DNA from: Escherichia coli
GTDB taxonomy: Bacteria > Pseudomonadota > Gammaproteobacteria > Enterobacterales > Enterobacteriaceae
DNA length: 64,000 nucleotides
Reading direction: 5' to 3' (one strand)
Assembly: GCF_016903815.1 (NCBI RefSeq)
Contig: NZ_CP069973.1
The translations under genes were made by a program, and so were the position numbers. The notes beneath the pieces were generated by a model. It made no database searches, was not told the DNA's origin, and saw only the letters and a program-made list of their open reading frames with translations. Positions 13,659-59,566 of the stretch are shown piece by piece; position 1 is the first letter of the stretch; each line of letters starts with the position of its first letter.

Positions 13659-13665
13659 GAATAGT

Positions 13666-18339: not shown

Positions 18340-19727
18340 TAATCACCCCATAGTGAAGAAAAGTTACTGCTGGCTGCTGGCTGTGATACCTGTGCAGGTT
18401 GAGATTGCTGCCGCTGAGATTTACCAACATTAACGTTATATTGTTGGTTGTAATTGTTGGTGTATTCCTGAATCTCACGAATCGACTGCTGCATAGCCTC
18501 CGGGCTTGAATAGTCAACCTGCGGCATCCCCTGAAAATACATCTTCGCTTCTGCAACGGTGTTAATACCACTGGCCCCCATGTCCCTTGCTGCCGCCACA
18601 CCCTGATTCTGCATTCTGCCCTGAATACGTTGTGCTGAGTTATATAACTGGCGCTGCTCTTTTCCTGTTAATCTGCTGCGAACATCAGCACCAATTGCCG
18701 GGTTACCTGCGCCGCCGGTCATTCCTGTCATGAAATCGAGAGCAGAAGCGTCTGCATTTGCGATAGCGTCGATATCCTTCTTCATGGCATAGTTTTGTGC
18801 TGATGCAGACGATGTTGCAGGCGCTGCGATTGAACTGGCAGGAACGCGAACCATATTCCCCTCGTTGTCGATGCCTTCGTAGAACGCATTAGCCCCAGCG
18901 CCGTGAAGCTTCCCACCTACCGTTACAGTTCTGCCATCTGATAACTGAACTGTACGCTCATCATTCCCAGCGATTCCTCTTGTTGACGCTCGCTGCATTG
19001 CCAAATCCTGACCTCGTCGCGCAGTAGAAGCAGATAAGTCCTGACCGCGCATCGTGATGTTCTGACCTCGTGCTGTTAGCGCCTCTCCAGCCTGATTGCT
19101 GCGGATTGTCTCTGCCAGTCTGCCTCGGTCAATTTCACGACCAGCCATCTTGTCCTGAACATTGAAGTAGTCAATCGGACCGAGAGCAGCCATCCCAAGG
19201 TGATCAACAAACTCACCAAATCCTGAAGGATTCTGCTGATACATCTGAGCAACGCTGTTAGGGTCAACACCGACGCGAGTCAGTTCCTTGGCGTTGTTTT
19301 GCAGCCATGATTGCATTGCTTCTGGAGACGATGACGCAAGGCGTGCGCCAGCCGCTAAGGTGCCGATAGAATTACGCTGCTCTTCATCAATGAATCCCAT
19401 GCCTTTACGAACGGATTCAATCTGGTCTGGATATTGAGTAGCCAACTGACGCAAAGCACCGCGATCACCAGACGCATAAGCATTAGCGTATGCCTGCTGA
19501 AATTCTTTCTGCCGCTGAGCCTGCTTTTCCTGCTGAAACACCCCCGCAATACCTGAAAGGCCTTGCAAAGCAGTCAGCCCAACATTGTTAGCGCCTGAAC
19601 GCTCAATATCATTGTTCTGCCTGATAAGCTGAAGCGTATTGCCGATGTCATTTACGCTCGGAGCGTTTGAGTTGACGCCGCCGATACCAGCCAACAATCC
19701 GCCGTTTGTTCCTTGCCAAGTAGCCAT
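18339..19727 (-). CDS. Ejection/injection protein (P22 gp20-like)
   Basis: 462 aa; synteny with P22 gene 20; overlapping stop/start with neighbours. Confidence 0.55.
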
Positions 19728-19736
19728 GATTACCCC

Positions 19737-20429
19737 TTAAAACAACGAGCCAAGCAATCCGATACCAGCACCAATGCCAGCGCCCCAAGGCGTTGATGTT
19801 CCCAAAAGGCTGGCAAGACCTGCACCGGCAATCGCACCAGACGTTCCGCCACTAATTGCTGTCTGAAGACTTGATGGTTTGTTGGCATTAGCAGCGGCAA
19901 GAGCTGCGCTTTGCTGTGCAATGCTGCTCATGTTGTTGGCGTATGTCTGCCCGGCGTTCGCCTGACCTTGCAGCGCACCAAGGCCAATGTTTGCCAGATT
20001 GTTGTAGTTGCTCATCTGGTTCGACAACCACGACTGACCGAGAGTCGGGGCAATCGTGGCCAGTTGATTGCTTGTGGCTGTCGAGCCAAGTCCCCCCGTC
20101 GCCTCCGCAGCAGCAAGACTCTGGTAACGCGCCTGACCTGCAAGGTCTTTATACTGCTGAGAGTTGTAATACTGATTAAGTGCCTGCCCCTGTCCTTCTA
20201 AACTGGAAAGATTCTGAAGCTGGTTAACATACTGCTCCGCAAGCGGAGTGAACGGAGCAAGGTTTTTCATGATCGTCTGCCACTGTTGATTTTGCAGGTC
20301 TGCGGCATACTTCTGAGCTTCTGCTGCATACTTTGCGCTTTTATCAGAGCTACCACCTTTCCCGCCTTTTTCAGGGCACCAAGGTTCCTCGCCGCGCAGT
20401 TTTCTGCCCAGCTTAAATGCATATAACAT
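19737..20429 (-). CDS. Ejection/injection protein (P22 gp7-like)
   Basis: 230 aa; Gly/Ala-rich C-terminus; synteny with P22 gene 7. Confidence 0.55.
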   Translation of the reverse strand: MLYAFKLGRKLRGEEPWCPEKGGKGGSSDKSAKYAAEAQKYAADLQNQQWQTIMKNLAPFTPLAEQYVNQLQNLSSLEGQGQALNQYYNSQQYKDLAGQARYQSLAAAEATGGLGSTATSNQLATIAPTLGQSWLSNQMSNYNNLANIGLGALQGQANAGQTYANNMSSIAQQSAALAAANANKPSSLQTAISGGTSGAIAGAGLASLLGTSTPWGAGIGAGIGLLGSLF

Positions 20430-20431
20430 GG

Positions 20432-20887
20432 CTATCTCCCGTGATTCAGGAAGTCGATTAGTTCTTCGCGTGTTGCGCTGTAAAACGTCACGTCATCCAC
20501 GCCTTTGAAGTATTTCTTGATGGTTCCTACACGATTAAGGCCAATCATTGCGCAGTACATCTGACCGTGGCGGAATTTGCGTGCAGCGAACGATGTGACG
20601 CACTGAACGGTGGTGTTAGTCAGAATGTATCGCCAGAACGCCAGCCCGATTTCCTTGCTGAAGCCTCGAATCTCTGGCAGGTACATGGCGTGGCAATCGA
20701 ATGTAAGCGGCTGAATCTCCTGATAGTAAACAATGCCGCCGAACTGCCCGTGCACGTTCACCTCAAAGTAACGGCAATCAGGTTTGTAGTCGTATCCATC
20801 ACCGTTGTTGCTCCCGGCGATAATGTCAGGGTGATTTCCTACTGCTTCTATCAGGTCGATGTTTCGCGTTGGTTTGAATGTAATCAT
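20432..20887 (-). CDS. Virion protein (P22 gp14-like)
   Basis: 151 aa; position between the tail-needle and gp7-like genes. Confidence 0.5.
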   Translation of the reverse strand: MITFKPTRNIDLIEAVGNHPDIIAGSNNGDGYDYKPDCRYFEVNVHGQFGGIVYYQEIQPLTFDCHAMYLPEIRGFSKEIGLAFWRYILTNTTVQCVTSFAARKFRHGQMYCAMIGLNRVGTIKKYFKGVDDVTFYSATREELIDFLNHGR

Positions 20888-21588
20888 CAGTCAATCAGCC
20901 CATGTAATCTAAGTGCTGTTTCAAGCGCCAGAATACGCTGCCGCGCCTGCTCCAAACCTGTAGCGATAGCTGCGACTTCGGATTGTGTGTACGTAGTGCC
21001 GACCGTGTATGACTGGTTAGCGTTGAATGAGCCAAGAAGTGGTGTGCCTGTGGCCGCCGTCCATCCGGTCTGCCTTGCTCCAACGACCTGAATTCCATCA
21101 ACTGAATATGATGTTTTTACATCCAGCGGTGACGCAAGAGACTGCGATTCTGTTACGGTTTTCGATACGTAATCACTCTTAATGCCAGAGACATCGTTTT
21201 CTACGTCATCCAGTCTTTGGTCAACAGTGACCAGATGCGCCTGAATATCGATAACCTCATCCAGCAAGTAATCAACATCGCTACGCAGTACGACTATCTT
21301 CCCTTCGGCAGTTGTTAACCTGACCTCAAGTAGATTTATCGCTTTTGTGTTTGCGGTGATTCTTGCGTCGTGATCAGCCAGTTCGACGTCCTGTTCATCG
21401 TTTTTTACCTGAGCATCGTAAGCGCCCTGACCAGCCTGATTTGCCTTCCCGGCAATTGCGCCAACATCAGCACCCTGATTTATGACATACAGCAGGTAAG
21501 ACTGGCTGAATATATTGCGTGGAAGGATTGATGTATCGAGCCGCGTCGCCTGCACAATAACAGGGGTGTTGAGATTCGAATCAGCCAT
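20887..21588 (-). CDS. Tail needle protein (P22 gp26 homologue)
   Basis: 233 aa; N-terminus [25 protein letters not shown]... and C-terminus ...[32 protein letters not shown] closely match my memory of P22 gp26. Confidence 0.85.
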
Positions 21589-21985
21589 TACTCAATCCTC
21601 TGCCTTGCAAACTCTCCAAAATTTTCTGCTCTTGCCATCATTGATGCTGAGATAGCTTCGTCCAGGTCATCGAAGCATCCAACGTGAACCTGTTTTTTAT
21701 TTTTCTTGAAAGAAACAGTCCACTTGCAGAGATTTTTGTGCCAACAGACACCAGGATATCCTGACTTATTATTTCTTTGAATATTCCTGTTCATCCCATT
21801 CTGGGATCTATTTGCCAATCTTAAATTTGAAAATCTGTTATCCGTTCTGTCTCCGTTAATATGATCTATTAAGCAATTTGCAGGTTTTCCTGTCATATAA
21901 AACCAAGCAAGCCTATGCGCTAAGTATCTCTTACCACAGACCATTATCCTTAAATAACCAGTGCACATGGTTCCTGGATTTGCCC

Positions 21986-32758: not shown

Positions 32759-33226
32759 TCATCGAAGGCATTGCGTCCTGATGTATTCCTGAAGCGTTCT
32801 CAGTGCTGTTTGGTCGCGGATAATTCCGCCCCGGACACCGAGAACGTTTCGTCCAGCAACTGGAGAGAGTTCGACGGTGGCATCATTGCCCATGCCGGAG
32901 GCGCTGGAGGTTTCGGCTGAGGATGGCATATGGCATTTTCCTTTGACGAACACCCGACCACCATTATCAAGCTTGCGCCGAAGAGCATCATTTTCAGCTT
33001 TCGCATCAGCTAACTCCTTCGTGTATTTAGCATCGAGTGCATCAGCAGAACGCTGGCGCTGCTGCATGTGAGTAATGGTGGCGGTCGCCTGCTTCAGCTC
33101 ACTGACTTTTTTATCTCGCTGCTCTTTGTAGGTCATGGCGTTATCACGGTAATGATTAACCGCCCATGACAGGCAGACGATGATGCAGATAACCAGAGCG
33201 GAGATAATCGCGGTGACTCTGCTCAT
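32759..33226 (-). CDS. i-spanin (Rz-like)
   Basis: 155 aa; N-terminal TM anchor then charged coiled-coil; downstream of the endolysin; contains the embedded Rz1 ORF. Confidence 0.8.
32800..33006 (-). CDS. o-spanin (Rz1-like lipoprotein), embedded in the +1 frame of Rz
   Basis: 68 aa; signal peptide with lipobox (VVGC); Pro-rich mature region typical of Rz1. Confidence 0.7.
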
Positions 33227-33699
33227 ACATCAATCTCTCTGACCGTTCCGCCTGCTTCTTTGAATTTTGCAATTAGGCTGTCAGCCTTATGCTCGAACTG
33301 ACCATAACCAGCGCCCGGCAGTGAAGCCCAGATATTGCTGCAACGGTCAATTGCCTGACGAATATCACCGCGGTCAATCATCGGTAAAGCGCCACGCTCC
33401 TTAATCTGCTGCAGTGCCACAGCGTCCTGGCTTTTCGGAGAGAAGTCTTTCAGGCCAAGCTGCTTGCGGTAGGCATCCCACCAACGGGAAAGAAGCTGGT
33501 AGCGCCCGGCGGCTGTTGATTTGAGTTTGGGGTTTAGCGTGACAAGTTTGCGAGGGTGATCGGAGTAATCAGTAAATAGCTCTCCGCCTACAATGACGTC
33601 ATAACCATGATTTCTGGTTTTCTGCCGTCCGTTATCAGTTCCCTCTGACCACGCCAGCATATCGAGGAACGCCTTACGTTGATTATTGATTTCCACCAT
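33223..33699 (-). CDS. Endolysin (lambda R-like lytic transglycosylase)
   Basis: 158 aa; translation closely matches my memory of lambda R. Confidence 0.85.
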
Positions 33700-34006
33700 C
33701 TTCTACTCCGGCTTTTTTAGCAGCGAAGCGTTTGATAAGCGAACCAATCGAGTCAGTACCGATGTAGCCGATGAACACGCTCGTTATATAAGCGAGATTG
33801 CTACTTAGTCCGGCGAAGTCGAGAAGGTCACGAATGAACCAGGCGATAATGGCGCACATCGTTGCGTCGATTACTGTTTTTGTAAACGCACCGCCATTGT
33901 ATCTGCCGCGAAGGTACGCCATTGCAAACGCAAGGATTGCCCCGATGCCTTGTTCCTTTGCCGCGAGAATGGCGGCTAACAGGTCATGTTTTTCTGGCAT
34001 CTTCAT
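33683..34006 (-). CDS. Class I holin (lambda S-like) with dual-start motif
   Basis: 107 aa beginning [10 protein letters not shown]... (Met1-Lys2-Met3, as in the lambda S107/S105 pair); three TM segments; overlaps the endolysin start. Confidence 0.85.
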
Positions 34007-34515
34007 GTCTTACCCCCAATAAGGGGATTTGCTCTATTTAATTAGGAATAAGGTCGGTTACTGATAGAACAAATCCAGGCTACTGTGTTTAGTAATCAGA
34101 TTTGTTCGTGACCGATATGCACGGGCAAAACGGCAGGAGGTTGTTAGCGCGACCTCCTGCCACCCGCTTTCACGAAGGTCATGCGTAGAAGGCCGCAGCA
34201 TAACTATCACTGATGAATTCAGGATAGCCAGTGGCTACGGCTCAGTTTGGGTTGTGGCGGCCGGAATCGAACCGGCTTCCATCGGTGCGCTGCCGATTGC
34301 AGTACGCGCGGCGGTCAGCTACATGACTAGTATTTTCACTGTCGCCTATCTGCTAGCTCGCCATTGAGCTTCACCACAACGATAAGAGCACTGCGCGGCA
34401 CCTTTCACCAATTCCGCGAGGTCTGCGGGTTCAATGCTCTTACCTGTTGTGCAAACAAAAAAAGCCACCATTGCAACTTAAGAGTCACTAACGGCAGCTT
34501 ATCTTCTAATTATGG

Positions 34516-35034
34516 CTAAATGGATAATTGCATGTCAAGGCTTTTAACAGCAACATGCTTAACTTTCTCAACACGTTTACGCATTTTGAAAGCATTTTGC
34601 ATTGGCTGGTACAAAACAAATAACGACGCTTTCAGGATGTCGTCAATTTCGTTTCTACAGGTTGCCAGTGAAGGTTTTCTCCATCCCTCACCACCACGTC
34701 CACACATCTTGCGTGGCTTTGCAGTCGCGTGATAGTAGGATGCAATTGCTCGCTTAGATGAACCATGAGCGTAGTAGCTGAGGAGGATGCCAAATGCTTT
34801 CTTGTCAATGCACATGACGGAATCGACGACCTGAGAAATCAACATTCCATCATCATCATTACACATTGGCCTTGTCATAACTCTTCCCGGCTCTACGCTC
34901 TCCATGAACTTCGCTATTACGCTGCTCATGCGCTTTTCCAGACGACCTGAATAAACCCATGCGCCCCACAGTTCAAGCCAGCCATTCAGCCACTCGTGCT
35001 GCTCTTTGGTGAGGTTTAGTTCTCTTATGCTCAT
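34516..35034 (-). CDS. Putative late-gene antiterminator (Q-like)
   Basis: 172 aa with Cys/His-rich region; located between the nin region and the lysis genes where Q lies; ~500-bp non-coding region downstream, consistent with PR'/qut. Confidence 0.55.
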   Translation of the reverse strand: MSIRELNLTKEQHEWLNGWLELWGAWVYSGRLEKRMSSVIAKFMESVEPGRVMTRPMCNDDDGMLISQVVDSVMCIDKKAFGILLSYYAHGSSKRAIASYYHATAKPRKMCGRGGEGWRKPSLATCRNEIDDILKASLFVLYQPMQNAFKMRKRVEKVKHVAVKSLDMQLSI

Positions 35035-35219
35035 CGTCTTCCCCTCTTGCCTTGTTTGACCATCAGGACGCCGTTAACTATTACGTGACGCTCGCCTTTG
35101 CTGTCTCGGTTGTACTTGAGCACTGTTCCTCTTGCGCAGGAAAGCATCCTTGCCACTTCGGTCTGATTTCCTCGTGTCTGGATAAGCAGTTCTGGTATCG
35201 TTTGAATTGTGGCGTTCAT
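35031..35219 (-). CDS. ninH: NinH-like protein
   Basis: 62 aa; 'GNQTEVAR...RGTV.KY' matches my memory of lambda NinH. Confidence 0.65.
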   Translation of the reverse strand: MNATIQTIPELLIQTRGNQTEVARMLSCARGTVLKYNRDSKGERHVIVNGVLMVKQGKRGRR

Positions 35220-35578
35220 GCGTTCTCCAGTTCGGTGATTTTTATTCCAAGCCGTCCGCCTGGTACTTTCACACCACGAATTACGCGAATGTCATCGAAT
35301 TGCTCGTCGTCTTCCGCAAATCCGGCGTGGATAAGGGAGTCGAGTAAACCTTTCAGGATGTTATCGAGGTCGCGGCGGCGGGAGTCTGGAACGTCTGCGA
35401 TGACTTTGATGCGGAGTCGTGATTTGGTGAAAATGTCTAACTTGAGTTGGCGGATGATTTGCTGAACGTCTTTTCGGTATTTCTGGCCTTTATCGCTGAT
35501 GTAGTATTGGCTTCCCCGTCTTCGCCAGTAGGTGTTCAGCGACGGTGGGTATGGAAGCACAAACTGATATTCGTTCAT
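35216..35578 (-). CDS. rusA: Holliday junction resolvase RusA
   Basis: 120 aa; size and nin-region position match RusA; acidic catalytic residues present. Confidence 0.8.
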   Translation of the reverse strand: MNEYQFVLPYPPSLNTYWRRRGSQYYISDKGQKYRKDVQQIIRQLKLDIFTKSRLRIKVIADVPDSRRRDLDNILKGLLDSLIHAGFAEDDEQFDDIRVIRGVKVPGGRLGIKITELENA

Positions 35579-35865
35579 GGCTTAATCTTCCCCTCCTTCA
35601 GCAGTATCGCCTGCGTCCTGATTACGCCTTCGAGGTGGTAAAGTCTGGCGTCTTTGTTGTCGAGGTTATGGGTGCGTCGGTCGATTTCATCGTGACACGC
35701 GCTACAAGCCCATGCGCCGATCAGGTCGTCAGGCTTCATTCCCGTTCCGCAAATTCCAGCCATCCGGTAATGTGCCAGAACTGTAGTTTCAGGATTACCA
35801 TTGCATACGCCGTAAATACGTACCTGGCATTCTCTGCCGCGTGCTTCTTTGCGTAGATTAGCCAT
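35575..35865 (-). CDS. Hypothetical nin-region protein (DUF1364-like, Cys/His-rich)
   Basis: 96 aa with CxxC...CxxC arrangement; overlapping stop/start with neighbours. Confidence 0.45.
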   Translation of the reverse strand: MANLRKEARGRECQVRIYGVCNGNPETTVLAHYRMAGICGTGMKPDDLIGAWACSACHDEIDRRTHNLDNKDARLYHLEGVIRTQAILLKEGKIKP

Positions 35866-36587
35866 TAAGCAGCCTCCCCTGTTACTTTCAGCATTCCGTT
35901 ATCGAGCAGCTTTCTGGTCAGCCACTGTTGACCACGCCCGGTGATTTTTGTGGTGAACGATATCTGTATTCCGTGATTTGTGTTGACCGCTGTTTCTTTC
36001 ACTGCGAAATAGCCGCGATCCATATATTCCTGCATTGGCACATTGCGCCGGGAACCTGAAGCAATAAGGATTTTGTGATCGCGCATCCACGCAAACAGTT
36101 TGTTTGGACCAATACCAACAACCTTTGCATAGTTTCCAATCAAAATTCCACTGGCCTCGCCAACGCGATCGGCAAACTCAACTTTAGGTGCGGCAATTGC
36201 GAGCTGGTTTTCCAGTTGCATTTTCTGCTCAGCAAGGTCAGCAGCAAGGCGCAACGCTTCTGGTAGCGTTTTTGGGATATTAACCGCAGATTCTTCAAGC
36301 TCTCGCCAACGGTCAACAAGGCGAGCGGTGAATTCCGGCGACAACTGGGCAACAACGACAATACTGTCTCGCTTACCTTGTTCGCCTTCGAAGACGTAAT
36401 GCTCGTACTGAACATTGAACCCTAAGTTATTGATTCTTCCGGAAACCTCAATTTGAGGAAGCCGGATAACACCATTTTTAGCCAGCGTTTCGATGGTACG
36501 TTTCACATTGTCATGACGCTTACCAACCAACTCAGCAATTTCAATGCTTGTCATTTTGATGGCATTGCCATTCATTAACTCATTCAT
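35865..36587 (-). CDS. Phage antirepressor-like protein (Rha/KilAC-type)
   Basis: 240 aa; N-terminal Rha-like region and C-terminal KilAC-like region by family resemblance. Confidence 0.55.
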   Translation of the reverse strand: MNELMNGNAIKMTSIEIAELVGKRHDNVKRTIETLAKNGVIRLPQIEVSGRINNLGFNVQYEHYVFEGEQGKRDSIVVVAQLSPEFTARLVDRWRELEESAVNIPKTLPEALRLAADLAEQKMQLENQLAIAAPKVEFADRVGEASGILIGNYAKVVGIGPNKLFAWMRDHKILIASGSRRNVPMQEYMDRGYFAVKETAVNTNHGIQISFTTKITGRGQQWLTRKLLDNGMLKVTGEAA

Positions 36588-36792
36588 CGTCTTCTTCCTC
36601 GTACATTGAGCTATTCGGATCGCTCATCAGTTCTGCGCAGCAGTGCTCACACACGTGAACTTCCAGCACATGCAGCTTCTGACCGCAGTTAGCGCACGTT
36701 AAAGCTCGCTCGACGCTTTCTTGTTCGTAACTTCGATTTGGGTCAATCACCTTGTATTCCTCGCACGATTTCTTAGCCACCGGATATCCCAC
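36580..36792 (-). CDS. Small Cys-rich nin-region protein (NinF-like)
   Basis: 70 aa with CxxC...CxxC and acidic tail. Confidence 0.4.
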
Positions 36793-36929
36793 AGGTGAGC
36801 AGTGTAATTGAAGGTTTTTACGTCAGATTCTTTTGGGATTGGCTTGCGTTTATTTCTGGAGCGTTTCGTTGGAAGGTATTTGCAGTTTTCGCAGATGATG
36901 TCAGTGAAACTTCGTCGCTGTCGCCTCAT
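36747..36929 (-). CDS. ninE: NinE-like protein
   Basis: ORF 36747-37019; start set at [31 protein letters not shown]... (60 aa), matching my memory of lambda NinE. Confidence 0.65.
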
Positions 36930-37453
36930 GCCGCCCTCCTGACGCCCTGCCCGATCGCCATCAATGCCGCTTTGGATACGGTAGTAAACATCCGTCGAGG
37001 ACTGATGAACGGTCGCCAAATCAGCAGCATGGAACCTTTGCTGTTTCCCTTCTTCTCCAGCCCTGTCGATGGTTCGATAAAATTAATCCGTCCATCAGTA
37101 ATGATGCGAACTTCGTCAATACTCTCCAGAGCCTTGCTGAACCATCCGACAGACATATCCTCTGGCACAAGCATAACTACCGTCTGTCGCTGTTGTATGC
37201 ACTGCTCAGCGGCTTTTTCCACCCACGGCCTGATATTGCTGTACGGCGGGTTATTCCAGATTGCACCGTGGCTTACCCACTCAGAATTGAGCGCGTCGTC
37301 GGCCTCAGTCAGCCAGTGAGCGCACAGAGCATTTTTGTCGCTCGCTGCCGAATCCAGCCAGAATCCAAACTCAATATCCAGTGCATCAAAAAGCCAAAGC
37401 GGCGTTTGCCAGCAGTCCTTGTCGTGTGCTGGCGTATTTGATTTGATAGTCAT
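36926..37453 (-). CDS. Phage DNA N6-adenine methyltransferase (Dam-like)
   Basis: ORF 36926-37513; start set at [18 protein letters not shown]...; 'NPPYS' catalytic motif; ATGA overlap with ninB stop. Confidence 0.75.
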
Positions 37454-37887
37454 GCAGCCCGATCTCCCCATCTCGCTTTCCACTCCAGAGCCAGTCTCGC
37501 TTCGTCTGACCACTTAACGCCACGCTCTGTACCGAATGCCTGTATAAGCTCTAATAGCTCCGCAAATTCGCCTACACGCATCCTGCTGGTTGACTGGCCT
37601 ATTACCACAAAGCCATTCCCGGCAAGGTTAGGAACAACATCCTGCTGCTTTAATGCTGCGGTAAACACACACTTCCAGCTTTCTGCATCCAGCCAGCGAC
37701 CATGCCATTCAACCTGACGAGAGACGTCACCTAAGCAGGCCCATAGCTTCCTGTTTTGGTCTAAGCTGCGGTTGCGTTCCTGAATGGTTACTACGATTGG
37801 TTTGGTTGGGTCTGGAAGGATTTGCTGTACTGCGTGAATAGCGTTTTGCTGATGTGCTGGAGATCGAATTTCAAAGGTTAGTTTTTT
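37450..37887 (-). CDS. ninB: Recombination protein NinB
   Basis: ORF 37450-37908; start set at MKKLTFEIRSPAHQQNAIHAV...; family resemblance to lambda NinB. Confidence 0.75.
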   Translation of the reverse strand, partial: KKLTFEIRSPAHQQNAIHAVQQILPDPTKPIVVTIQERNRSLDQNRKLWACLGDVSRQVEWHGRWLDAESWKCVFTAALKQQDVVPNLAGNGFVVIGQSTSRMRVGEFAELLELIQAFGTERGVKWSDEARLALEWKARWGDRAA

Positions 37888-37963
37888 CATGACTTCCCTC
37901 TCCCCCAAATAAAAAGGCCTGCGATTACCAGCAGGCCTGTTATTAGCTCAGTGATGTAGATGA

Positions 37964-38233
37964 TCATTGCTTCATCTCCCTTTCCATTTCATCAATGTCA
38001 ACGTCATCAGGAAGATGGGAGCAATACGCCGCTATACCATGATGATTTATCTCATACCCTTTGAACGTTACCATCTGGTGCGTAATCTCAACTTCGTTCA
38101 GGAATCCGTCATCGCATAACTGCCTGGCTATTTTCGATTTGGTCTGGATTATTGGTAGTGCCTGTTCTTTCAAAGCGCATGATATTTGTGCATCCCATGC
38201 CTTTTCGAGAATGGCTAATTGTTTTTTATTCAT
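37964..38233 (-). CDS. Hypothetical phage protein
   Basis: 89-aa ORF immediately downstream of the helicase gene. Confidence 0.35.
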   Translation of the reverse strand: MNKKQLAILEKAWDAQISCALKEQALPIIQTKSKIARQLCDDGFLNEVEITHQMVTFKGYEINHHGIAAYCSHLPDDVDIDEMEREMKQ

Positions 38234-39669
38234 CAGAATCCTCCTTTCTTCTTGGACTGCGGTTCCTCGCGTTCACGGCGGCGCATTTCAGCAGACTGTT
38301 GGTCTGTGTCATAAATAGCGCCATTTGCCTGAATGCAATACACCGTGCCGGTATTGCCATGACGATTGAGGCGAAGGATTAGTTCGGTTTCACCAGGAGG
38401 AAAGCTGTCATCAAAAGCACCTTCACGATGGATCCCAACCCAATAATCGCAATCCTGTTCAATCTGCCCTGTATCTCGTGAGTCACTTGGTAATGGGCGT
38501 TTATTGGTTCGGCTTTCCAGTGCGCGGTTAAGCTGTGTCAGAAGCACAACAACGCAATCAAGCTCTTTGGCAAGGTTCTTCAGTCCTTTGGTGATCATGC
38601 CGTAAGCAAGGTCGTTGCGATCGGCCTTTTCAGCGGTCATTAGTGTCAGGTAATCGACCAGAATCATGCCAACACATCCTTTTTCTCGCTTGATTCGACG
38701 GCTTTCGCTGACGATTTGAGCCAGAGATAATCCCGGCGTGTCGTCGATGTAAAGCAGGTCGATTTCACTCAAGCGATTGGCTGTTTCGATCGCCCTGTTG
38801 AAGTCACCATCGTAATCACCCTGATAGCCGTCATCAGCGTCATTTGTCGCCGGAAGGTAAAAAATATTGGGGTTAACACCTGACTTTTGCCCTACCAGTT
38901 TTTCCAGTATCTGGTCACCTGGCATTTCAAGGCTGAACATCAGAGCGGGCTTTTTCTCATGCACTGCGCAGTTGATTGCCATCTGGCTGTATAGCGTCGT
39001 TTTCCCCATCTTAGGGCGAGCGCCAATGACAAACAAAGAGCCTTTCACCAGACCTTTCGGTGACAGCATCCTGTCCAGCGATGGGATCCCTGTGCTCATT
39101 CCTCGTTGTTCGCCTGACGGGTCAAAACGCTTCTCAAGGTCGCTAACCCAGTCTTCCATGACCTCACCAAATGAGCGAAGTCCGCGACGCGATCCGGTTT
39201 TTGCATGGTCTGTCAGTTGCGTGAAAATCGCCTGAATAGCTTCGTACTTCTGCGTTGCAGTCATTCCGTTGCGGGAATAGAGCAATTCCGTCGCTTCAGT
39301 CATGCGGTTGATGGCGTAGCGTTCCATTGCGGTTTCGCGAACCTGCATTGCATAGGCAACGATGTTTGCTGCGCTTGGCGTGTTCTTTGCGATCTCAGCG
39401 ATATAAGCAAAACCGCCAACAGACGCCGTTAACGATTTACGCTCCAGTTCATCGAAAAGCGTCAGGCCATCTACTGGCTTTTGCTCCCGGTGCATTCTGG
39501 TTATCTCTTCGAAAAGGATTTTGTGTGGTCGGCTGTAAAATGAATCAGGCTTCAGCATCGCCAGAACTTTCTGGACGCGCTCACTGCTGTCATCATCCAG
39601 AAGCAATCCACCAATCACCGCCTGCTCTGCCTCGATGCTATGGGGCGGCGCATAAAAATTATCGGTCAT
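38233..39669 (-). CDS. Replicative DNA helicase (DnaB-like; P22 gene 12 position)
   Basis: ORF 38233-39684 (GTG) with internal ATG at 39669; Walker A 'GARPKMGKTT' and DnaB-type N-terminal domain. Confidence 0.85.
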   Translation of the reverse strand: MTDNFYAPPHSIEAEQAVIGGLLLDDDSSERVQKVLAMLKPDSFYSRPHKILFEEITRMHREQKPVDGLTLFDELERKSLTASVGGFAYIAEIAKNTPSAANIVAYAMQVRETAMERYAINRMTEATELLYSRNGMTATQKYEAIQAIFTQLTDHAKTGSRRGLRSFGEVMEDWVSDLEKRFDPSGEQRGMSTGIPSLDRMLSPKGLVKGSLFVIGARPKMGKTTLYSQMAINCAVHEKKPALMFSLEMPGDQILEKLVGQKSGVNPNIFYLPATNDADDGYQGDYDGDFNRAIETANRLSEIDLLYIDDTPGLSLAQIVSESRRIKREKGCVGMILVDYLTLMTAEKADRNDLAYGMITKGLKNLAKELDCVVVLLTQLNRALESRTNKRPLPSDSRDTGQIEQDCDYWVGIHREGAFDDSFPPGETELILRLNRHGNTGTVYCIQANGAIYDTDQQSAEMRRREREEPQSKKKGGF

Positions 39670-40558
39670 CGTGTTCACCCTCACGAACTTTCAGGTAGGT
39701 ATTGTCGTTAAGCAGGAAATCAAATCCCTTTTTGTGCCAGACGGTTCCGCGTTGATGGTTTGGGCGTTCTTCGAACATCCATCGGCAATTTTCGCCTACG
39801 TAGCTCAAATAATTTCTCCAGTCCTGCATCGTGAACCCATGTCCGTCAAGCTGGCGGGTTATCACTCCGGCTTTGCGCCAGAACGTTCGGATCTGGTTTT
39901 TACGCTTGTCATTCAGTGCGCGGATTCTTGGCGCTTCAGGAAGGATTTCGTGGTAAGCATCGACAACATCCTGACAGCTGACGGAAGGTTTTTTCTTGTC
40001 AGACTTTTTGTCTGCTGTGGCACTCTCTAATACGTCAGTATTAGAGATAATATTATTATATTCTTTATCTGTGGTAATTTGCTGGTAATCTGCTGGTACA
40101 GTATTGCTTGCAGGCATTGGTATTGCTGGCTTTGAGGTGGTAATTTGCTGGTAATCTGCTGGTACAAAACTTGACTGATAATCGTCATATTTCTCTACCG
40201 AGAAAACTGAGAATTTACCGTGTGAAACCCAGTCAATCATGCCGAGTTTTTTGAACTTTCTAAGCAGGTACTGAACGCGATCTGGTTTGAGTCCTGTTTC
40301 AAACGCCAGAGAGTTTCTACCGCCAAGTAGCTTCCCTCTGCCTACCAGAATTTCTCCTGCGTCAGTCATTACATACTCAGGCGTATGCTTTGCTTTGAGG
40401 ATTAAGTGAACCCACAGATGCGCTGCTTCTGCGTCCTTGTAAAACGGCACATCCATAATTTTACGGTGCAGCAAGGCATACCCCTTACCGCTGCTTTGAT
40501 GCGGTTGTTGTAGCCTTCTGGCCTCTCTGGCTTCGGCTAGATTAGATATGTTACTCAT
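39659..40558 (-). CDS. Replication initiation protein (lambda O / P22 gp18 functional analogue) containing ori iterons
   Basis: 299 aa; direct DNA repeats in the middle of the gene encode a duplicated [10 protein letters not shown] peptide; immediately upstream of the helicase. Confidence 0.65.
40071..40166. repeat. Putative phage replication origin iterons inside the O-like gene
   Basis: Two ~30-bp direct repeats (40071-40100, 40137-40166), each with internal sub-repeats gctggtaat(t/c)tgctggta, next to an AT-rich tract. Confidence 0.6.
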
Positions 40559-40729
40559 GACCTTTCTCCTTCTGCATCAGCTTCACTTTTTCCAACTCAG
40601 CCCGAAATCGACCAGGCTGCTTGAAGCTGGACAGGAAGCGATCACGTAGTATGTGTTTGTGAATTTTGTCCTGGTAAGGACTGAGTTGTTTTGTCATAAT
40701 TACTCCTGTGGATTGATCCAGTAATGACC

Positions 40730-41023
40730 TCAGAACTCCATCTGGATTTGTTCAGAACGCTCGGTTGCCGCCGGGCGTTTTTTATTGGTGAGAATCGAAG
40801 CAACTTGTCGTGCCAATCGAGCCATATCGTCGTCAACGACGCCCCATTCAAGAACAGCAAGCAGCATTGAGAACTTTGGAATCCAGTCCCTCTTCCACCT
40901 GCTGATCTGCGACTTATCAACTCCTACAGCTTCCGCTGTCTTCTCAGTTCCAAGCATTGCGATTTTGTTAAGCAACGCACTCTCGATTCGTAGAGCCTCG
41001 TTGCGTTTGTTTGCACGAACCAT
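40730..41023 (-). CDS. cII: Transcriptional activator CII
   Basis: ORF 40730-41083; start set at [51 protein letters not shown]...; near-identical to my memory of lambda CII (97 aa). Confidence 0.85.
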
Positions 41024-41142
41024 ATGTAAGTATTTCCTTAGATAACAATTGATTGAATGTATGCAAATAAATGCATACACCATAGGTGTGGTTTAATTTG
41101 ATGCCCTTTTTCAGGGCTGGGATGTGTAAGAGCGGAAATGTC

Positions 41143-42495
<1,353 letters not shown>

Positions 42496-42544
42496 TCCCC
42501 ACCTCAATCTCGATAACCAAAAACAAACTATTTTTCATTTAAAA

Positions 42545-42612
42545 ACAATGGAGTTTGTTTTTCACGCCCCTTTTTACAATATTTCTTGTTTACAACATAC
42601 AATCTTTCTTGT
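42545..42612. promoter_or_regulatory. Left operator region OL (434-type operators, PL promoter region)
   Basis: Three ACAA-N6-TTGT sites: acaatggagtttgt (42545-42558), acaatatttcttgt (42576-42589), acaatctttcttgt (42599-42612), upstream of nutL and N. Confidence 0.7.
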
Positions 42613-42656
42613 AATTTTAAGCCATCAGCAGGACGCACTAACCACCATGAAGGTGA

Positions 42657-42687
42657 TGCTCTTAAAAATTAAGCCCTGAAGAAGGGC
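42657..42687 (+). promoter_or_regulatory. nutL antitermination site (boxA + boxB)
   Basis: boxA-like GCTCTTAAAAATTAA directly followed by boxB hairpin GCCCTGAAGAAGGGC, as in lambda nutL. Confidence 0.8.
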
Positions 42688-42885
42688 AGCTTTCAAAGCA
42701 GAAGGCTTTGGGATTGGATGAATGAGCAGGCTGATGCTCGACCAATGTATAAACAGCGCTCATGGCAAGCAGTAACCAATCTGCGCCTCAAGACAGCGTC
42801 ACTGGTAGTGCGGGCGCTCTAACCAGTAAGCCGGGGTTCAGCGCCGGCCATCCAATCACCAAAGCTAACTGACAGGAGAATCCAG

Positions 42886-43218
42886 ATGGATGCACAAACA
42901 CGCCGCCGCGAACGTCGCGCAGAGAAACAGGCTCAATGGAAAGCAGCGAATCCCCTGTTGGTTGGGGTAAGCGCAAAACCAGTTAACCGCCCTATTCTCT
43001 CGCTGAATCGCAAACCGAAATCACGAGTAGAAAGCGCACTGAATCCGATAGACCTTACGGTGCTGGCTGAATACCACGAACAGATTGAAAGCAACCTGCA
43101 GCGTATTGAGCGCAAGAATCAGCGCACATGGTACAGCAAGCCACGCAGTGAAATGGGTGTGACTTGCTCAGGCCGCCAGAAGCAACGCGGAAAATCAATT
43201 CCAGCTTATTACGATTGA
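42886..43218 (+). CDS. N: Antitermination protein N
   Basis: 110 aa; MDAQTRRRERRAEKQAQWKAANPLLVGVSAKPVNRPILSLNRKPKSRVESALNPIDLTVLAEYH... matches my memory of lambda N (arginine-rich boxB-binding motif). Confidence 0.9.
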   Translation: MDAQTRRRERRAEKQAQWKAANPLLVGVSAKPVNRPILSLNRKPKSRVESALNPIDLTVLAEYHEQIESNLQRIERKNQRTWYSKPRSEMGVTCSGRQKQRGKSIPAYYD

Positions 43219-43226
43219 GGTGATAT

Positions 43227-43478
43227 ATGGAATTTCATGAAAGTGCGATTTGTGATTTTCGCGCTAACGCAAATTCAGTAAAACCACAGCCAATTGCAGT
43301 TCTTTTTAAAACAATGGGAGCGTGGGCTGTTTTATGCTTCGCCGCTGATGACACTGACGCAAGAATGGCAATAGGCCAAGAGATGGAGATGGATCCGACA
43401 AACGATGAATTCATAATTTATGGCGCTCCATCTAATTACTTACTTGATACCTGCAACATTTACAACAAGGCTGCCTGA
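43227..43478 (+). CDS. Hypothetical early-left operon protein
   Basis: 83-aa ORF immediately after N. Confidence 0.35.
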   Translation: MEFHESAICDFRANANSVKPQPIAVLFKTMGAWAVLCFAADDTDARMAIGQEMEMDPTNDEFIIYGAPSNYLLDTCNIYNKAA

Positions 43479-43537
43479 TGGTGGTCTTTATTTTTTAGCC
43501 GTAAATAATTTCATGCTTATTACAATCAAGGTGATAT

Positions 43538-43903
43538 ATGGAAGAACAAGCAAACAAGATTCTCGTAGAACTACTGCAAAAAGCCAGCAATGGAATAGAC
43601 GCGGCTGTTTCATTTAGCCAGGCACAGATTCCTGATGTCATCCATCAGCTTTTGATGTGGCACGCCGTATCATCAGCTGGAATTCAGGCTATCTGTGTAT
43701 TGGTGATTATAGCGTGTGTTTATCTGATGATTTTTGCATGGAATAAAGGAGATGATGCAGATATTGTTCTTTCATCACTACTTGTCACATCAGGAATAGC
43801 GATTATTTCTATTGTTGTTTTCTTCAATTATTTCGACTGGCTGAAAATTTGGCTTGCTCCAAAACTTTACCTTATCGAATATGCAGCATCATTGGTTAAG
43901 TAA
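43538..43903 (+). CDS. Hypothetical membrane protein (early-left operon)
   Basis: 121 aa with 2-3 predicted TM segments; in the ral/sieB position of lambda. Confidence 0.4.
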   Translation: MEEQANKILVELLQKASNGIDAAVSFSQAQIPDVIHQLLMWHAVSSAGIQAICVLVIIACVYLMIFAWNKGDDADIVLSSLLVTSGIAIISIVVFFNYFDWLKIWLAPKLYLIEYAASLVK

Positions 43904-44092
43904 TTTCAGGACGCATAGCCGGCCTTTATTTTTGGCACAAACAACAGAATAAACACTGCACTGTGTATTCATTCCAACGAGTGGATACACGGAGCAATGT
44001 CGCTCGTAACTAAACAGGAGCCGACTTGTTCTGATTATTGGAAATCTTCTTTGCCCTCCAATGTGAGGGCAGTTTTTTTGACGGAGTAAACG

Positions 44093-44341
44093 ATGATAAA
44101 AACTGATTACCCTGCAGAGCTTAAACAAAAAGTAATAACAGCAATTAAATGCTCTTTTATCTCATGTCGTACAGATGAAGAACGATATGTCGTTGAGTGT
44201 GCAATTGTCGAGTTTCTCACAGCGATGGAATTTACCGCTGCAGAATCAATAGATGTATTAAAGCAATCAGACGGAAATGATATTGAAACGGATGATGTTA
44301 TTGACCGACTAATAAAATCATTCGAAGAAGAAATAGAGTAG
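44093..44341 (+). CDS. Hypothetical acidic protein
   Basis: 82-aa ORF; position only. Confidence 0.35.
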   Translation: MIKTDYPAELKQKVITAIKCSFISCRTDEERYVVECAIVEFLTAMEFTAAESIDVLKQSDGNDIETDDVIDRLIKSFEEEIE

Positions 44342-44543
44342 CCGCCTGAGCGCGGCTTTACCGCATACCAATAATGCTTCACGAGAGGCATTTTAGTTAT
44401 GCAATCAAATATAAGGAGTTACCCATGATGCACTTTCAGCTCGCGGGTAGCGGCGTCATGTCCGCTTTCTACCCGCACGAATCTGAATTATCACGCCGAG
44501 TTAAACAATTAATCAGAGCAGCAAAGAAACAAATGGAGGCGTT

Positions 44544-44696
44544 ATGCGCAATGAAATAGCCATCAATCACCAGATGCTTCGTGCTGCACAGAACAAAGCA
44601 GTAATAGCCAGATTTATTGGTGATTCCAAAATGTGGCTTGAAGCAAATAAAGCGATGAAATCAGCTATCAACCTTCCGTGGTATCGCAGGAAATGA
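44544..44696 (+). CDS. Small protein, possibly Kil-like
   Basis: 50-aa ORF MRNEIAINHQMLRAAQNKAVIARFIGDSKMW... not in the ORF track (<60 aa); 'FIGD' segment loosely recalls lambda Kil; ATGA-coupled to a following 34-aa ORF (44693-44797). Confidence 0.3.
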   Translation: MRNEIAINHQMLRAAQNKAVIARFIGDSKMWLEANKAMKSAINLPWYRRK

Positions 44697-44777
44697 GTTT
44701 TACAGATAACTGGTCAGACGAAGAATTCATTCGTCAGATGAACAAAATGCTCAATCAGCACAAAGAACAGGAGAAAG

Positions 44778-45089
44778 ATGATGATTCTGACTCTGAATGA
44801 TAAGCGTGAAATATCGCAAATAATCGCAAGTTTTACTGATGAAGATTACGAACGAATCAACAGTGAAGTTGATCGCCTCTGCAAACGTTGCGACCCAATA
44901 AGCGAAATGCTTCGCTCATATAAACCAGATGAACACACTAAGGACGCTATCGACTGGCTGGAAGATGATGACTGTAACTATCAGGAAAAAGCCGCTGAAT
45001 GGTTCTGGGATGCAATAACCGAAAGAGTTAAGGCTGAATATGCCTTCGCAATATTCAAACGCAGACATATTTATGGAGAAGCTGCATGA
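44778..45089 (+). CDS. Hypothetical protein
   Basis: 103-aa ORF, ATGA-coupled to the recT-like gene. Confidence 0.4.
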   Translation: MMILTLNDKREISQIIASFTDEDYERINSEVDRLCKRCDPISEMLRSYKPDEHTKDAIDWLEDDDCNYQEKAAEWFWDAITERVKAEYAFAIFKRRHIYGEAA

Positions 45090-45997
45090 GCAATATCGTT
45101 GAATTCGTTAAACAGCAAGAGCAGTTATTCTGCGGAGCATTGACTGAACAGACGGTGACATGGGCTAAGGAAAGCCAGTTTGCAATTCAGTATTTCCAGA
45201 AAAATGATTACCTGGCTAAAACGGCACTGGCAAATCCAACCAGCGCACAGAACGCCATCATCAATGTTGCGGCGATCGGCATCACCTTAAACCCGGCCAG
45301 CAAACTGGCTTATCTGGTTCCTCGCGACGGCATGGTGTGCCTTGATATCAGTTATATGGGATTGCTCCATATTGCAATGGAGTCTGGTGTTATCTCATGG
45401 GGTCAGGCAAAACTTGTTCATGCTAACGATACCTATGAGTCAAACGGGCTTGATAAAGCACCAACCCATAAATACAACGCCTTCGGTGATCGTGGTGATA
45501 TCGTTGGCGTTTACTGCACAGTTAAGACGCCAGCAGGTGATTATCTAACGGAAGAGATGAGTCTGGCTGAAATTGAGGCTGTAAGGAAAACAAGCAAGGC
45601 GGCATTCAGCGATAAAGGACCATGGGTAAATCACTGGAATGAGATGGCGCGAAAGACGGTCGTAAAGCGTGCAAGCAAGTTTTGGCCTAAGGCATCACGT
45701 CTTGATAGTGCTATTCACGTACTAAACGAAGAAGAAGGTGTGTGGACTGAACCAGTTATGCCGCACAAATCAGAGGAAGATATCCGCGAAGATGAACGGA
45801 AACGCCAGCAGGAAATAACGGATAAAGCACAACTTCTTTGTGATGAAATGGCTCAGGCTGAAAACATGGATGATTTGAAGCGATATTTTGCAGAAGCATA
45901 TCGCCTGACATCTGGAATGAAATTGCAGCAGAACGTACAAGCCATTTACGCAGAATGCAAAGCGAAACTGGAGGTTGCCAGTGAGCAAACTATATGA
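45086..45997 (+). CDS. recT: Single-strand annealing recombinase (RecT family)
   Basis: 303 aa; 'GPWVNHWNEMARKTVVKRASKFWP' resembles the RecT family core as I recall Rac RecT. Confidence 0.75.
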   Translation: MSNIVEFVKQQEQLFCGALTEQTVTWAKESQFAIQYFQKNDYLAKTALANPTSAQNAIINVAAIGITLNPASKLAYLVPRDGMVCLDISYMGLLHIAMESGVISWGQAKLVHANDTYESNGLDKAPTHKYNAFGDRGDIVGVYCTVKTPAGDYLTEEMSLAEIEAVRKTSKAAFSDKGPWVNHWNEMARKTVVKRASKFWPKASRLDSAIHVLNEEEGVWTEPVMPHKSEEDIREDERKRQQEITDKAQLLCDEMAQAENMDDLKRYFAEAYRLTSGMKLQQNVQAIYAECKAKLEVASEQTI

Positions 45998-46463
45998 AAT
46001 TGCCAATGAATACGCAAAATTGATGGATTCAGATTTAGAACCAGAGATGATTGCTGACACAATAGAAGGCATGGAAGGAGAATTTACCGATAAAATAGAG
46101 CAACTTCTTGCCATTATTAAAAATGAATCTGGTTATGCTGAACGCCTCAAGGAAGAGGCAAAGTCACTGAATGAGCGAGCCGCAGTAATTCAAAATAAGA
46201 TTGAGAGCATCAAATCATATATAGCGTCATCGCTTGAAATGGTTGGCAAGAAAAAGATTCGAGCAGGTATTCACCAGGTAACAATCCGCAAACCGTCAGA
46301 AACTGTAGAAATCATCGACTCAAGCGCCCTTCCTCCTGAATACGTTGAGTTTGAAACGACAATTAAAGCCGACAAACTGGCAATCAAACACCAACTAAAA
46401 GCAGGAATAAATATCCCCGGCGCTCAACTCAAAGTTGGGAAACCTTCACTTCTTATCAAATAA
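45975..46463 (+). CDS. Hypothetical recombination-associated protein
   Basis: 162-aa ORF (non-ATG start in the track); immediately downstream of recT; coiled-coil composition. Confidence 0.4.
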   Translation: MPVSKLYEIANEYAKLMDSDLEPEMIADTIEGMEGEFTDKIEQLLAIIKNESGYAERLKEEAKSLNERAAVIQNKIESIKSYIASSLEMVGKKKIRAGIHQVTIRKPSETVEIIDSSALPPEYVEFETTIKADKLAIKHQLKAGINIPGAQLKVGKPSLLIK

Positions 46464-46474
46464 CGGTATCGACT

Positions 46475-46789
46475 ATGAAAAAGACTCCATGGGAGAAATG
46501 GGAAGTCGATTTCTTGCGCGAGGTAGCGGCGACAATGCCAGTTGAAGTTATCGCTGAAAAACTGGAAAGGACTGAAAAAGCAGTAATGGCGAAAGCAACA
46601 AGGATTGGCGCTGACATTGTTAGCCGACTTCGTGGAAGACGATGGACAAGAGCCGAAGTATCACTTTTCGGTAAGTTCTCCGCAGAAGAAATAGCAATTG
46701 CAACCTGCCGCTCAATTTATTCAGTAAGAGCTATGCGATACAAGCTAAAAAAACTCGATGAAGAAAGAGCAGGCATACGAATAAATTAA
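46475..46789 (+). CDS. Hypothetical protein
   Basis: 104-aa ORF with plausible spacing. Confidence 0.4.
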   Translation: MKKTPWEKWEVDFLREVAATMPVEVIAEKLERTEKAVMAKATRIGADIVSRLRGRRWTRAEVSLFGKFSAEEIAIATCRSIYSVRAMRYKLKKLDEERAGIRIN

Positions 46790-46805
46790 CATGGAGTAAT
46801 TAACA

Positions 46806-47087
46806 ATGAAGCTAAACATCGACCTTGGAAAATACGTTATTACCGGAACCAAACACGACCTGATTCTTAGTGAAAGAGGAATTATCAAAGAAGGCGAGAA
46901 TGCAGGGAAAGAAACACTAAGTCGTATCGGTTATTACAGCAAGTTTGAGCATCTGGTTAAAGAGTTATGCAACCGTGAAATCCTGTTATCTCAGGCGCAG
47001 ACACTACAGGATATTCAGCAGCATATCGAGACTTTAGGTGTATCACTTAGCACGGCTGTTGACCAGTTCGCGGAGAGTAAATCATGA
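46806..47087 (+). CDS. Hypothetical protein
   Basis: 93-aa ORF; stop overlaps the next small ORF. Confidence 0.4.
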
Positions 47088-47247
47088 GAGGACTTGCATA
47101 CAATCCCGGCATTCTTCCGGCAGAAATGATTATTCGCCAACGCGTAAAGCCAATGCCATCGAGAGAGGAATTGCTTAAGAGAAATTCTTTTCCATCAGTG
47201 AATCAAAACAAATATCTGAATTCGATGTGGCGCAAAGGAGGCAAGCA

Positions 47248-47502
47248 GTGAGTAATTCCGCACGACTACAGCTTGGTTTTTCACCGCTATCAAAAACTAT
47301 CATGCTGGCAAAAATGCGCGATGTTGAAGGTGGACGTATGCGCGTTGGCAATGATCCAGGTCGTGATGTTACCAATGAGGCTGCTCAATTGGTGTGGCGA
47401 CTGGTCATGGCTGAAGGTGGTGAGATCGCGTGGGAACTTGATGATGGTTCTCGCATGGTGTTGAAGGCAGAGAAGCAGGAGACAACCAGTGAGCAAGATT
47501 GA
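47248..47502 (+). CDS. Hypothetical protein
   Basis: ORF 47227-47502; probable GTG start at 47248, GTGA-coupled to the preceding 55-aa ORF (47084-47251). Confidence 0.35.
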
Positions 47503-48181
47503 CTATCAGGCACTGCGTGATGTGGCAGTGAAAGCCGGTAAAGATAAGTGGCAAGCTAAAAAAATAAACGGTGATTTTTTCGTTATTCGTCACGGTAGTT
47601 ATACAAGACAGCATGGCTACACATTGTATCAACCCATTGCGGAGATTGATTGTAAGTCAGTCCGGGATTTTGTTGCCAAGGCTAATCCGGCTACCGTGCT
47701 TGCGCTTCTTGATGAACTGGAAGCTCAAAGCAAACGCATTGCAGAGCTGGAGAAAAAAGCTGCACCAGATTCGTTTGGCATCATCGGTGAAAATATTCGA
47801 ACACAGGATAATCGAATAACGTCAGACCCTATGTTTTGTGTGTATCAAAAGCGCGAAATCGTTGTTGATGCTGATTATGACTATGACCGGATTGTCTGGG
47901 TTGATGAAGATGGTAATGAAGCCAATAAACGCCAAAGTCGTCGTCTCGAACTACTTCACGAAAACTTTCGAGAGCCACAAGAAAAATGGCGGCGCGTTGC
48001 TGTGAAAGATATTGATGAATTCGTTACCTGCTGTTTCACCGAACAGGGTTGTAAAGACTACCTGGCAGCCAATGGTCACAATCTTCGCTTGCCATTTATA
48101 TATGTAAAAAGCGGTTTCAGGAACGCTGAATATATCGGCATAAGAAACTGGCTTGCTGGCATTCGCATCAAAGGAGAGTGA
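47489..48181 (+). CDS. Hypothetical protein (Ead/Ea22-like early protein)
   Basis: 230-aa ORF overlapping the preceding stop. Confidence 0.4.
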   Translation: MSKIDYQALRDVAVKAGKDKWQAKKINGDFFVIRHGSYTRQHGYTLYQPIAEIDCKSVRDFVAKANPATVLALLDELEAQSKRIAELEKKAAPDSFGIIGENIRTQDNRITSDPMFCVYQKREIVVDADYDYDRIVWVDEDGNEANKRQSRRLELLHENFREPQEKWRRVAVKDIDEFVTCCFTEQGCKDYLAANGHNLRLPFIYVKSGFRNAEYIGIRNWLAGIRIKGE

Positions 48182-48182
48182 T

Positions 48183-49457: not shown

Positions 49458-49753
49458 CATCCTCGCACTCGCGGGGATTTCTTTTATCTGAACTCGCTAC
49501 GGCGGGTTTTGTTTTATGGAGATGATAAATGCACTTCCGAGTCACTGGTGAATGGAATGGAGAGCCATTCGACAGGGTTATAGAAGCAGAGGACATCAAC
49601 GACTGCTATAACCACTGGATGATATGGGCGCAGATAGCGCATGCAGACGTAACCAATATTCGAATTGAAGAACTGAAAGAACACCAAGACGCCTGATGGC
49701 GGTTTTTTATTGCCTGATTTGCAGGTTCGATTCCCTATTCGGAGATAGCACTC

Positions 49754-59560: not shown

Positions 59561-59566
59561 AATGCA

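Follow-up and report, generated by a model that had tools for sequence, protein, structure and literature searches.

Bacteriophage lambda makes two proteins from its holin gene S, S105 and S107, in a ratio of roughly 2:1, and its endolysin R is a soluble transglycosylase. Initiation at Met3 gives S105, a holin with three transmembrane domains (TMDs) in an N-out, C-in topology, whose large holes release the endolysin (PMC6116005). Initiation at Met1 gives S107, in which the positive charge of the Met-Lys extension prevents TMD1 from inserting. S107 forms dimers with S105, which it inhibits, and lambda that makes S105 only lyses 5-10 min early; once the proton-motive force collapses, TMD1 of S107 inserts and the inhibitor then adds to hole formation (PMC6116005). 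Initiation at the two codons is governed by the sdi ("site-directed initiation") structure, which sets the holin:antiholin ratio (PMC3359269; PMC9636201 agrees). Mutation of the start codons of lambda S, with lysis timing as the readout, was done decades ago (PMC6116005, PMC9636201, PMC3359269).

Two further phages serve as points of comparison. Salmonella phage P22 carries gene 13/13', annotated as an "inhibitor of holin" with a nested holin. The S21 protein of phage 21 is an unrelated, smaller pinholin with two TMDs that works with a SAR endolysin. S21 likewise has a dual start that yields an antiholin and a holin (S21-71 and S21-68; PMC6116005, PMC9636201).

We analysed a 64,000-nt stretch of an Escherichia coli genome (contig NZ_CP069973.1), referred to below as the window. 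A sequence-only reading had pointed to an ORF opening Met-Lys-Met and had proposed that it encodes a holin with the S107/S105 arrangement of lambda. We put at about 95% the probability that this gene is lambda S in its Gly105 allele, serving as a dual-start holin/antiholin gene within the lysis cassette that a P22-like prophage carries at argW (Table 1).

Table 1. Features of the S locus, its carrier prophage and the adjoining element, in window positions.
Feature	Position	Strand	Basis or remark
S gene, long product (S107-type antiholin, 107 aa)	33683..34006	-	ATG 34006-34004; identity to lambda S and family matches
S gene, short product (S105-type holin, 105 aa)	33683..34000	-	ATG 34000-33998, two codons downstream, in frame
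sdi hairpin AUCCCC-UUAUU-GGGGGU	34012..34028	-	Fold; 3' arm holds the Shine-Dalgarno (SD) purines, 6 nt upstream of ATG1
Downstream hairpin GCCGC-CAUUCUC-GCGGC	33960..33976	-	Codons 11-16; in every fold of the initiation region; identical in lambda
Strong GC hairpin and UUUU in the S leader	34121..34167	-	-28.2 kcal/mol, z -4.7; 0/200 shuffles as stable
R endolysin gene	33223..33699	-	Matches lambda R at 157/158 aa; first 17 nt shared with the end of S
Rz, inner-membrane spanin subunit	32759..33226	-	PF03245
Rz1, outer-membrane lipoprotein subunit, embedded in Rz in another frame	within 32800..33006	-	PF06085
Q late-gene antiterminator (172 aa), not lambda-type	34516..35034	-	PF06530, phrog_943
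Candidate late promoter pR', TTGACA-18-CATAAT	34509..34538	-	Consensus scan, 11/12 match
tR'-like leader terminator hairpin followed by U7	34457..34505	-	-19.9 kcal/mol, z -2.5; overlaps the qut region
P22-like prophage carrying the cassette (~39.2 kb)	10815..50043		21-nt repeat of the tRNA-Arg(CCU) 3' end
Tyrosine integrase of the second element	50207..51493
Rep/relaxase-like protein of the second element	53557..54609		phrog_30534
Serine resolvase of the second element	59567..60193

Gene S and its start region

Positions 33683 to 34006 hold exactly one ORF, of 107 codons and a stop codon. The sequence-only reading had its coordinates exactly right and omitted the strand, which is minus. AAG (34003-34001) separates the two ATG codons, and the protein begins Met-Lys-Met-Pro-Glu-Lys-His-Asp. 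A start of the form M-[K/R](1-2)-M is found in S alone among the window's 226 mechanically called ORFs that are 60 aa or longer.

Compared with lambda S (NC_001416 45186..45509), 106 of the 107 residues are identical, and the sole difference is R105G. At the nucleotide level, S together with 150 nt of leader is identical at 496 of 501 positions. Four of the five differences fall inside the coding sequence, three of them silent and one the A-to-G change that gives R105G; the fifth lies in the leader. The possibility of a chance Met-Lys-Met was ruled out by the 99% identity to lambda and by the uniqueness of the motif within the window.

Family assignments agree with this identification. The protein scores well above the cutoffs of Pfam PF05106 (Phage_holin_3_1; 105.3 bits, cutoff 23.8) and of the NCBIfam equivalog TIGR01594 holin_lambda (127.3 bits, cutoff 55.05), and it matches PHROG 126 "holin/anti-holin" (phrog_126, E=1e-40). 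A simple Kyte-Doolittle hydropathy calculation, as distinct from a dedicated TM predictor, gives three hydrophobic stretches (residues ~9-29, 41-61 and 61-85) followed by a basic C-terminal tail. The family scores, the three hydrophobic segments with a net-positive tail and the position in the cassette place S in class I, the lambda S family of holins. From the 99% identity we infer an N-out, C-in topology and the formation of large, non-specific holes at a programmed time. Judged by these identities, the gene is lambda S itself, a textbook gene that is already known, rather than an analogue of it.

The RNA elements around the start codons are equally close to those of lambda. The sdi hairpin is base for base the same as lambda's; its predicted energy of -9.7 kcal/mol is equalled or bettered by 9 of 200 shuffles (z -1.9), a modest edge. 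Between positions -40 and +70 of S, lambda and the window differ once (+30 G>A, silent at Leu10), outside both helices, and the two predicted fold energies of this interval are -28.1 and -28.6 kcal/mol. The initiation region as a whole is not unusually stable (z -0.8). As signs of a dual start we looked for in-frame starts one to three codons apart and a basic residue in the N-terminal extension, and S has both. A stem-loop overlapping the Shine-Dalgarno sequence is present as well, and control of the product ratio by such a structure is known from lambda alone (PMC3359269). Rfam returned no match to the sdi and leader region at either gathering or permissive thresholds, its only match being a sub-threshold one of the tRNA/tmRNA clan to the tRNA-like remnant described below.

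With the protein (106/107 aa), the leader, both starts and both hairpins shared with lambda in this way, the proposal of a holin with the S107/S105 arrangement held up. The likeness extends to the ATG-AAG-ATG start, the ~250-nt leader, the 17-nt overlap with R and the gene order S-R-Rz/Rz1. What sets the window apart from lambda is R105G, the three silent changes in S and the one leader change, together with a Q, pR' and tR' of the phage 21 type, another allele of the distal Rz/Rz1 and a carrier that is a P22-like, podovirus-type prophage.

The S genes of Sf6 (gp60/gp61), CUS-3, HK620, HK544, mEp213, IME10 and vB_EcoP-611R6, all P22-like or lambdoid coliphages, are also close. Several of their proteins are 100% identical to that of the window, Gly105 included, and S DNA in the Sf6/CUS-3/HK620 group is 99.5-100% identical; this group also shares the late promoter and Q of the 21 type. 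Both products are listed in curated entries for near-identical phages, as gp60/gp61 "similar to lambda S107/S105" in Sf6 and as 13/13' in P22, and the lambda record too has the nested CDS. The P22 protein is ~90% identical to that of the window and its gene has an SD-sequestering hairpin at the same position; it differs in its Met-Lys-Lys-Met start and in its stem, CCUCAC/GUGAGG as against AUCCCC/GGGGGU in the window, a compensated difference.

Conservation of the double start and its hairpin

S with its leader, at 90% identity or more, is present in 1,213 of 5,426 complete E. coli genomes, about a fifth, and in 187 phage records. RefSeq labels the E. coli copies only "phage holin, lambda family". 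Close relatives show no variation in ATG-AAG-ATG, which every one of the 80 retained IMG/VR loci has. The sdi hairpin is unchanged in 75 of 82 recovered start regions, a set that includes lambda, CUS-3 and Sf6; of the rest, five are altered once in the helix and one in the loop, and one locus comes without its leader. Five of the 75 start regions with an unchanged hairpin have a different leader sequence upstream of it.

We then compared twelve divergent lineages with 29-90% protein identity. Their N-termini read MKKM in P22, MKM in Louie, phiEt88, F10, phi2 and ZC-S1, and MPNM in VW-6S; that of Aeromonas phage pAEv1818 reads MKM once the upstream ATG is counted. In ten of the twelve, a hairpin of -7 kcal/mol or stronger lies between -34 and -3 with the SD purines in its 3' arm, whereas only 3 of 51 upstream regions of other genes in the window reach this energy. 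The stems themselves differ among lineages (AUCCCC/GGGGGU, CCUCAC/GUGAGG, UCCGA/UCGGA, CUCCC/GGGAG).

A further survey covered 80 loci with 39-55% identity to the Aeromonas member and was anchored on the ATG pair nearest the aligned Met1/Met3. Two in-frame ATG codons, one to three codons apart, stand at the aligned N-terminus of 77 of these loci. After reduction to 52 distinct leaders, each of them has a hairpin at least as strong as -6 kcal/mol, and in 45 it attains -7 kcal/mol (mean -9.9), compared with 18% of random 32-mers from the same loci and 29% of shuffles. Together with the upstream regions of other genes, these make three kinds of folding control. The leader hairpins, which are short and variable in loop and spacer, were found by folding each sequence separately, so that the test is one of energy enrichment over controls and not of pair-by-pair covariation.

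The claim that lysis-timing regulation is conserved thus gained support, as the double ATG and the SD-sequestering hairpin upstream of it are kept in divergent homologs. Lys or Arg occurs in the extension of 39 of the 52 distinct leaders. The other 13 (MNHM, MDHM, MQNM, MQM, MTM; loci L252, L255, L257, L258, L261-L263, L266, L271, L296 and L297, and also L232 and L250) keep the double ATG and the SD-masking hairpin without a basic residue, and this subgroup might use two starts by a logic other than the charge block of Lys2.

Whether the sdi-type hairpin and the double ATG constitute a cis-regulatory RNA module that is ancient and common to the entire PF05106 family, with a subgroup that lacks the basic residue, is in our judgement evenly balanced. 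Compensatory changes may have maintained such a module in phages that infect Escherichia, Salmonella, Erwinia, Aeromonas and Pseudomonas and whose proteins share 29-55% identity. This reading concerns the PF05106 family, in which the window locus is a standard member. The retention of the double start and the SD-masking hairpin in very divergent members could justify a curated RNA motif and better annotation of holin start sites.

The lysis cassette and competing readings

S is the first gene of an S-R-Rz/Rz1 cassette, with Q, pR' and tR' upstream. The near-identity to lambda begins ~260 nt upstream of S and stops ~100 nt inside Rz, a pattern that is the usual lambdoid mosaicism. The distal Rz/Rz1 (32759..33125) is a third allele, unlike both lambda and Sf6; on its 5' side the flank matches lambda and on its 3' side Sf6, which places a mosaic joint inside the spanin genes.

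The late-control region has a different affinity. CUS-3 and Sf6 have a Q coding sequence of equal length (519 bp) in the same place, the Sf6 copy being annotated as "similar to phage 21 Q", and both phages align with the window at the 3' end of Q as well as across the promoter region. The candidate pR' aligns with an Sf6 feature annotated as "nearly identical to phage 21 late promoter", and the tR'-like hairpin with the annotated qut site and tR' of Sf6. Nearer to S, the strong GC hairpin is identical to lambda's and lies within a conserved block of ~250 nt upstream of S, which the CUS-3 record names boundary sequence bsq3. Since both Q and the late promoter are of the phage 21 type and not the lambda type, transcript levels may differ from those of lambda.

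With Q and pR' of the 21 type, a phage-21-type holin was also considered. It was ruled out by the holin's assignments, which are to the lambda families alone (PF05106/TIGR01594), and by an endolysin that is 99% lambda R; the pairing of a two-TMD S21 pinholin with a SAR endolysin is thus not what the window holds.

Two further structures were noted between Q and S. A tRNA-like remnant (34249..34307, minus strand) consists of a T-arm, GCCGGTTCGATTCCGGC, and the 3' half of an acceptor stem; it scores 20 bits with the Rfam tRNA/tmRNA clan, below threshold, and is negative in ARAGORN. The Q-S spacer differs here from that of the Sf6 group, and Sf6 has an intact tRNA-Asn and tRNA-Thr in this place. 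Just downstream of tR', a long hairpin (34376..34450, minus strand; -32.8 kcal/mol, z -2.7) has arms, CACAACAGGTAAGAGCA and TGCTCTTATCGTTGTG, that are conserved in lambda and CUS-3, and an interior shared by the window and CUS-3 that differs from lambda's. This hairpin may be one of a series of tandem late-leader terminators or a recombination boundary.

Three things were observed directly: each cis element and the protein agree in sequence with lambda's, the cassette lies in its operon context, and conservation is family-wide. On this basis, and by the example of lambda, both starts would be used in the window prophage, and the product ratio, the topology and the effect on timing would follow. 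Late transcription would start at pR' and be carried by the Q antiterminator past tR' and the leader hairpins, and the resulting single S mRNA would be translated from both starts. Translation from ATG3 would give the 105-aa holin. Initiation at ATG1 would add Met-Lys, whose extra positive charge would keep the first transmembrane segment out of the membrane; the 107-aa form would then bind and inhibit the holin until the membrane is de-energised, and would join in hole formation thereafter. Rz/Rz1 would then disrupt the outer membrane. The sdi hairpin is expected to sequester the Shine-Dalgarno purines that serve ATG1 and, together with the downstream hairpin, to set the ratio of the products and thereby fine-tune the time of lysis.

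Other readings of the locus were weighed against this one. S could use one start only, the second ATG being an ordinary internal methionine or the upstream one a fortuitous codon, and hence make no antiholin. Several GenBank records do annotate one "holin" CDS, and the 13 divergent leaders without Lys/Arg between the methionines indicate that a double ATG need not mean a lambda-type antiholin everywhere. Nevertheless, every element that experimentally gives two products in lambda is identical here (PMC6116005, PMC9636201, PMC3359269), the ATG pair and SD hairpin are kept at 77 of 80 divergent loci, which is unexpected for a neutral codon, and a single ORF out of 226 in the window has such a start, so that we find one-start use hardly credible. 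It is also very unlikely that the cassette is a relic in a defective, never-expressed prophage, with an inherited motif that has no current role. That many E. coli prophages are cryptic, that the tRNA-like remnant stands where Sf6 has intact tRNAs and shows some local decay, and that a second integrative element lies in tandem at the same tRNA site would all fit a relic; against it, every expected module is represented by intact ORFs and flanked by matching att repeats (integrase, repressor, replication, Q, lysis, terminase, portal, coat, ejection proteins, tailspike), and S, R and the leader are 100% identical to named phages deposited as complete records, e.g., vB_EcoP-611R6.

A third possibility leaves the dual-start machinery as it is and concerns residue 105 alone: the Gly105 allele would lyse at a measurably different, probably earlier, time than laboratory lambda, and timing regulation would be conserved in kind but not in set-point. 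We regard this as possible but doubtful. With R105G the C-terminal tail loses one positive charge (net +3 becomes +2), and the underlying nucleotide change is silent in the overlapping R frame. Gly105, rather than the Arg105 of laboratory lambda, is the common natural allele: the exact 27-mer with GGA occurs in at least 120 IMG/VR contigs, against five with lambda's AGA, and all 80 retained IMG/VR loci encode exactly this S protein, as do Sf6, HK544, mEp213, IME10 and others. PMC12817945 describes the cytoplasmic C-terminal tail of S, after Blasi 1999, as a regulatory domain that affects timing and needs at least one basic residue. Since R105G lowers the charge of this tail, the timing set-point may differ from that of laboratory lambda, and the prevalence of Gly105 is of some value for the same reason. 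Yet four basic residues are left in the tail, where one is reported to be enough for function (PMC12817945), and losing one distal charge may make next to no difference.

As for the reading of the gene as lambda S with two starts, nothing in the sequence argues against it. The S locus itself matters little beyond annotation, where both the S107-type and the S105-type products deserve an entry.

The carrier prophage and the argW site

The 21-nt repeats that bound the prophage lie at 10815-10835 and 50023-50043. Between them are genes for an integrase, a repressor, a DnaB-like helicase, RecT, terminase, portal, coat, gp7, gp20 and a P22-type tailspike head-binding domain, and judged by this content the prophage looks complete. 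Its best phage matches are CUS-3, HK620 and vB_EcoP-611R6, and its chromosomal neighbourhood is of E. coli type (fadJ, fadI, fadL, mlaA, yfdC).

At the moron position between the integrase and the tailspike, the prophage carries a DUF1796 papain-like protein (12270..12962, minus strand) and a GDSL/SGNH hydrolase (12858..13658, plus strand; "moron lipase" in PHROGs). CUS-3 and Sf6 have O-acetyltransferases at this position, so the genes at 12270..13658 may modify surface polysaccharides. Elsewhere in the prophage, a perfect 30-nt direct repeat, GTGGTAATTTGCTGGTAATCTGCTGGTACA, occurs at 40071..40100 and 40137..40166, 66 nt apart, within the ORF 39659..40558 just upstream of the gene for the DnaB-like helicase. 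These iteron-like repeats are a candidate for the replication origin of the prophage.

Directly after the attR repeat of the prophage, and in tandem with it, lies a second mobile element (50023..60193), so that the argW site holds two elements. This element includes an overlapping two-gene operon on the minus strand (55408..58874), in which a gene of 825 aa (56397..58874) is followed by one of 330 aa (55408..56400). Neither matches any family in Pfam, NCBIfam, PHROGs or PADLOC. At 99% identity or more, 147 of the 5,426 complete E. coli genomes contain this operon, in every case under the label "hypothetical protein". Given its location inside the second integrative element, it may be cargo of that element, possibly a defence system.

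At the right end of the window (60791..63023, minus strand), the genes for a LacY-family permease and a sugar kinase (PfkB) are similar to those of csc sucrose utilisation, which lie near argW in some E. coli strains.
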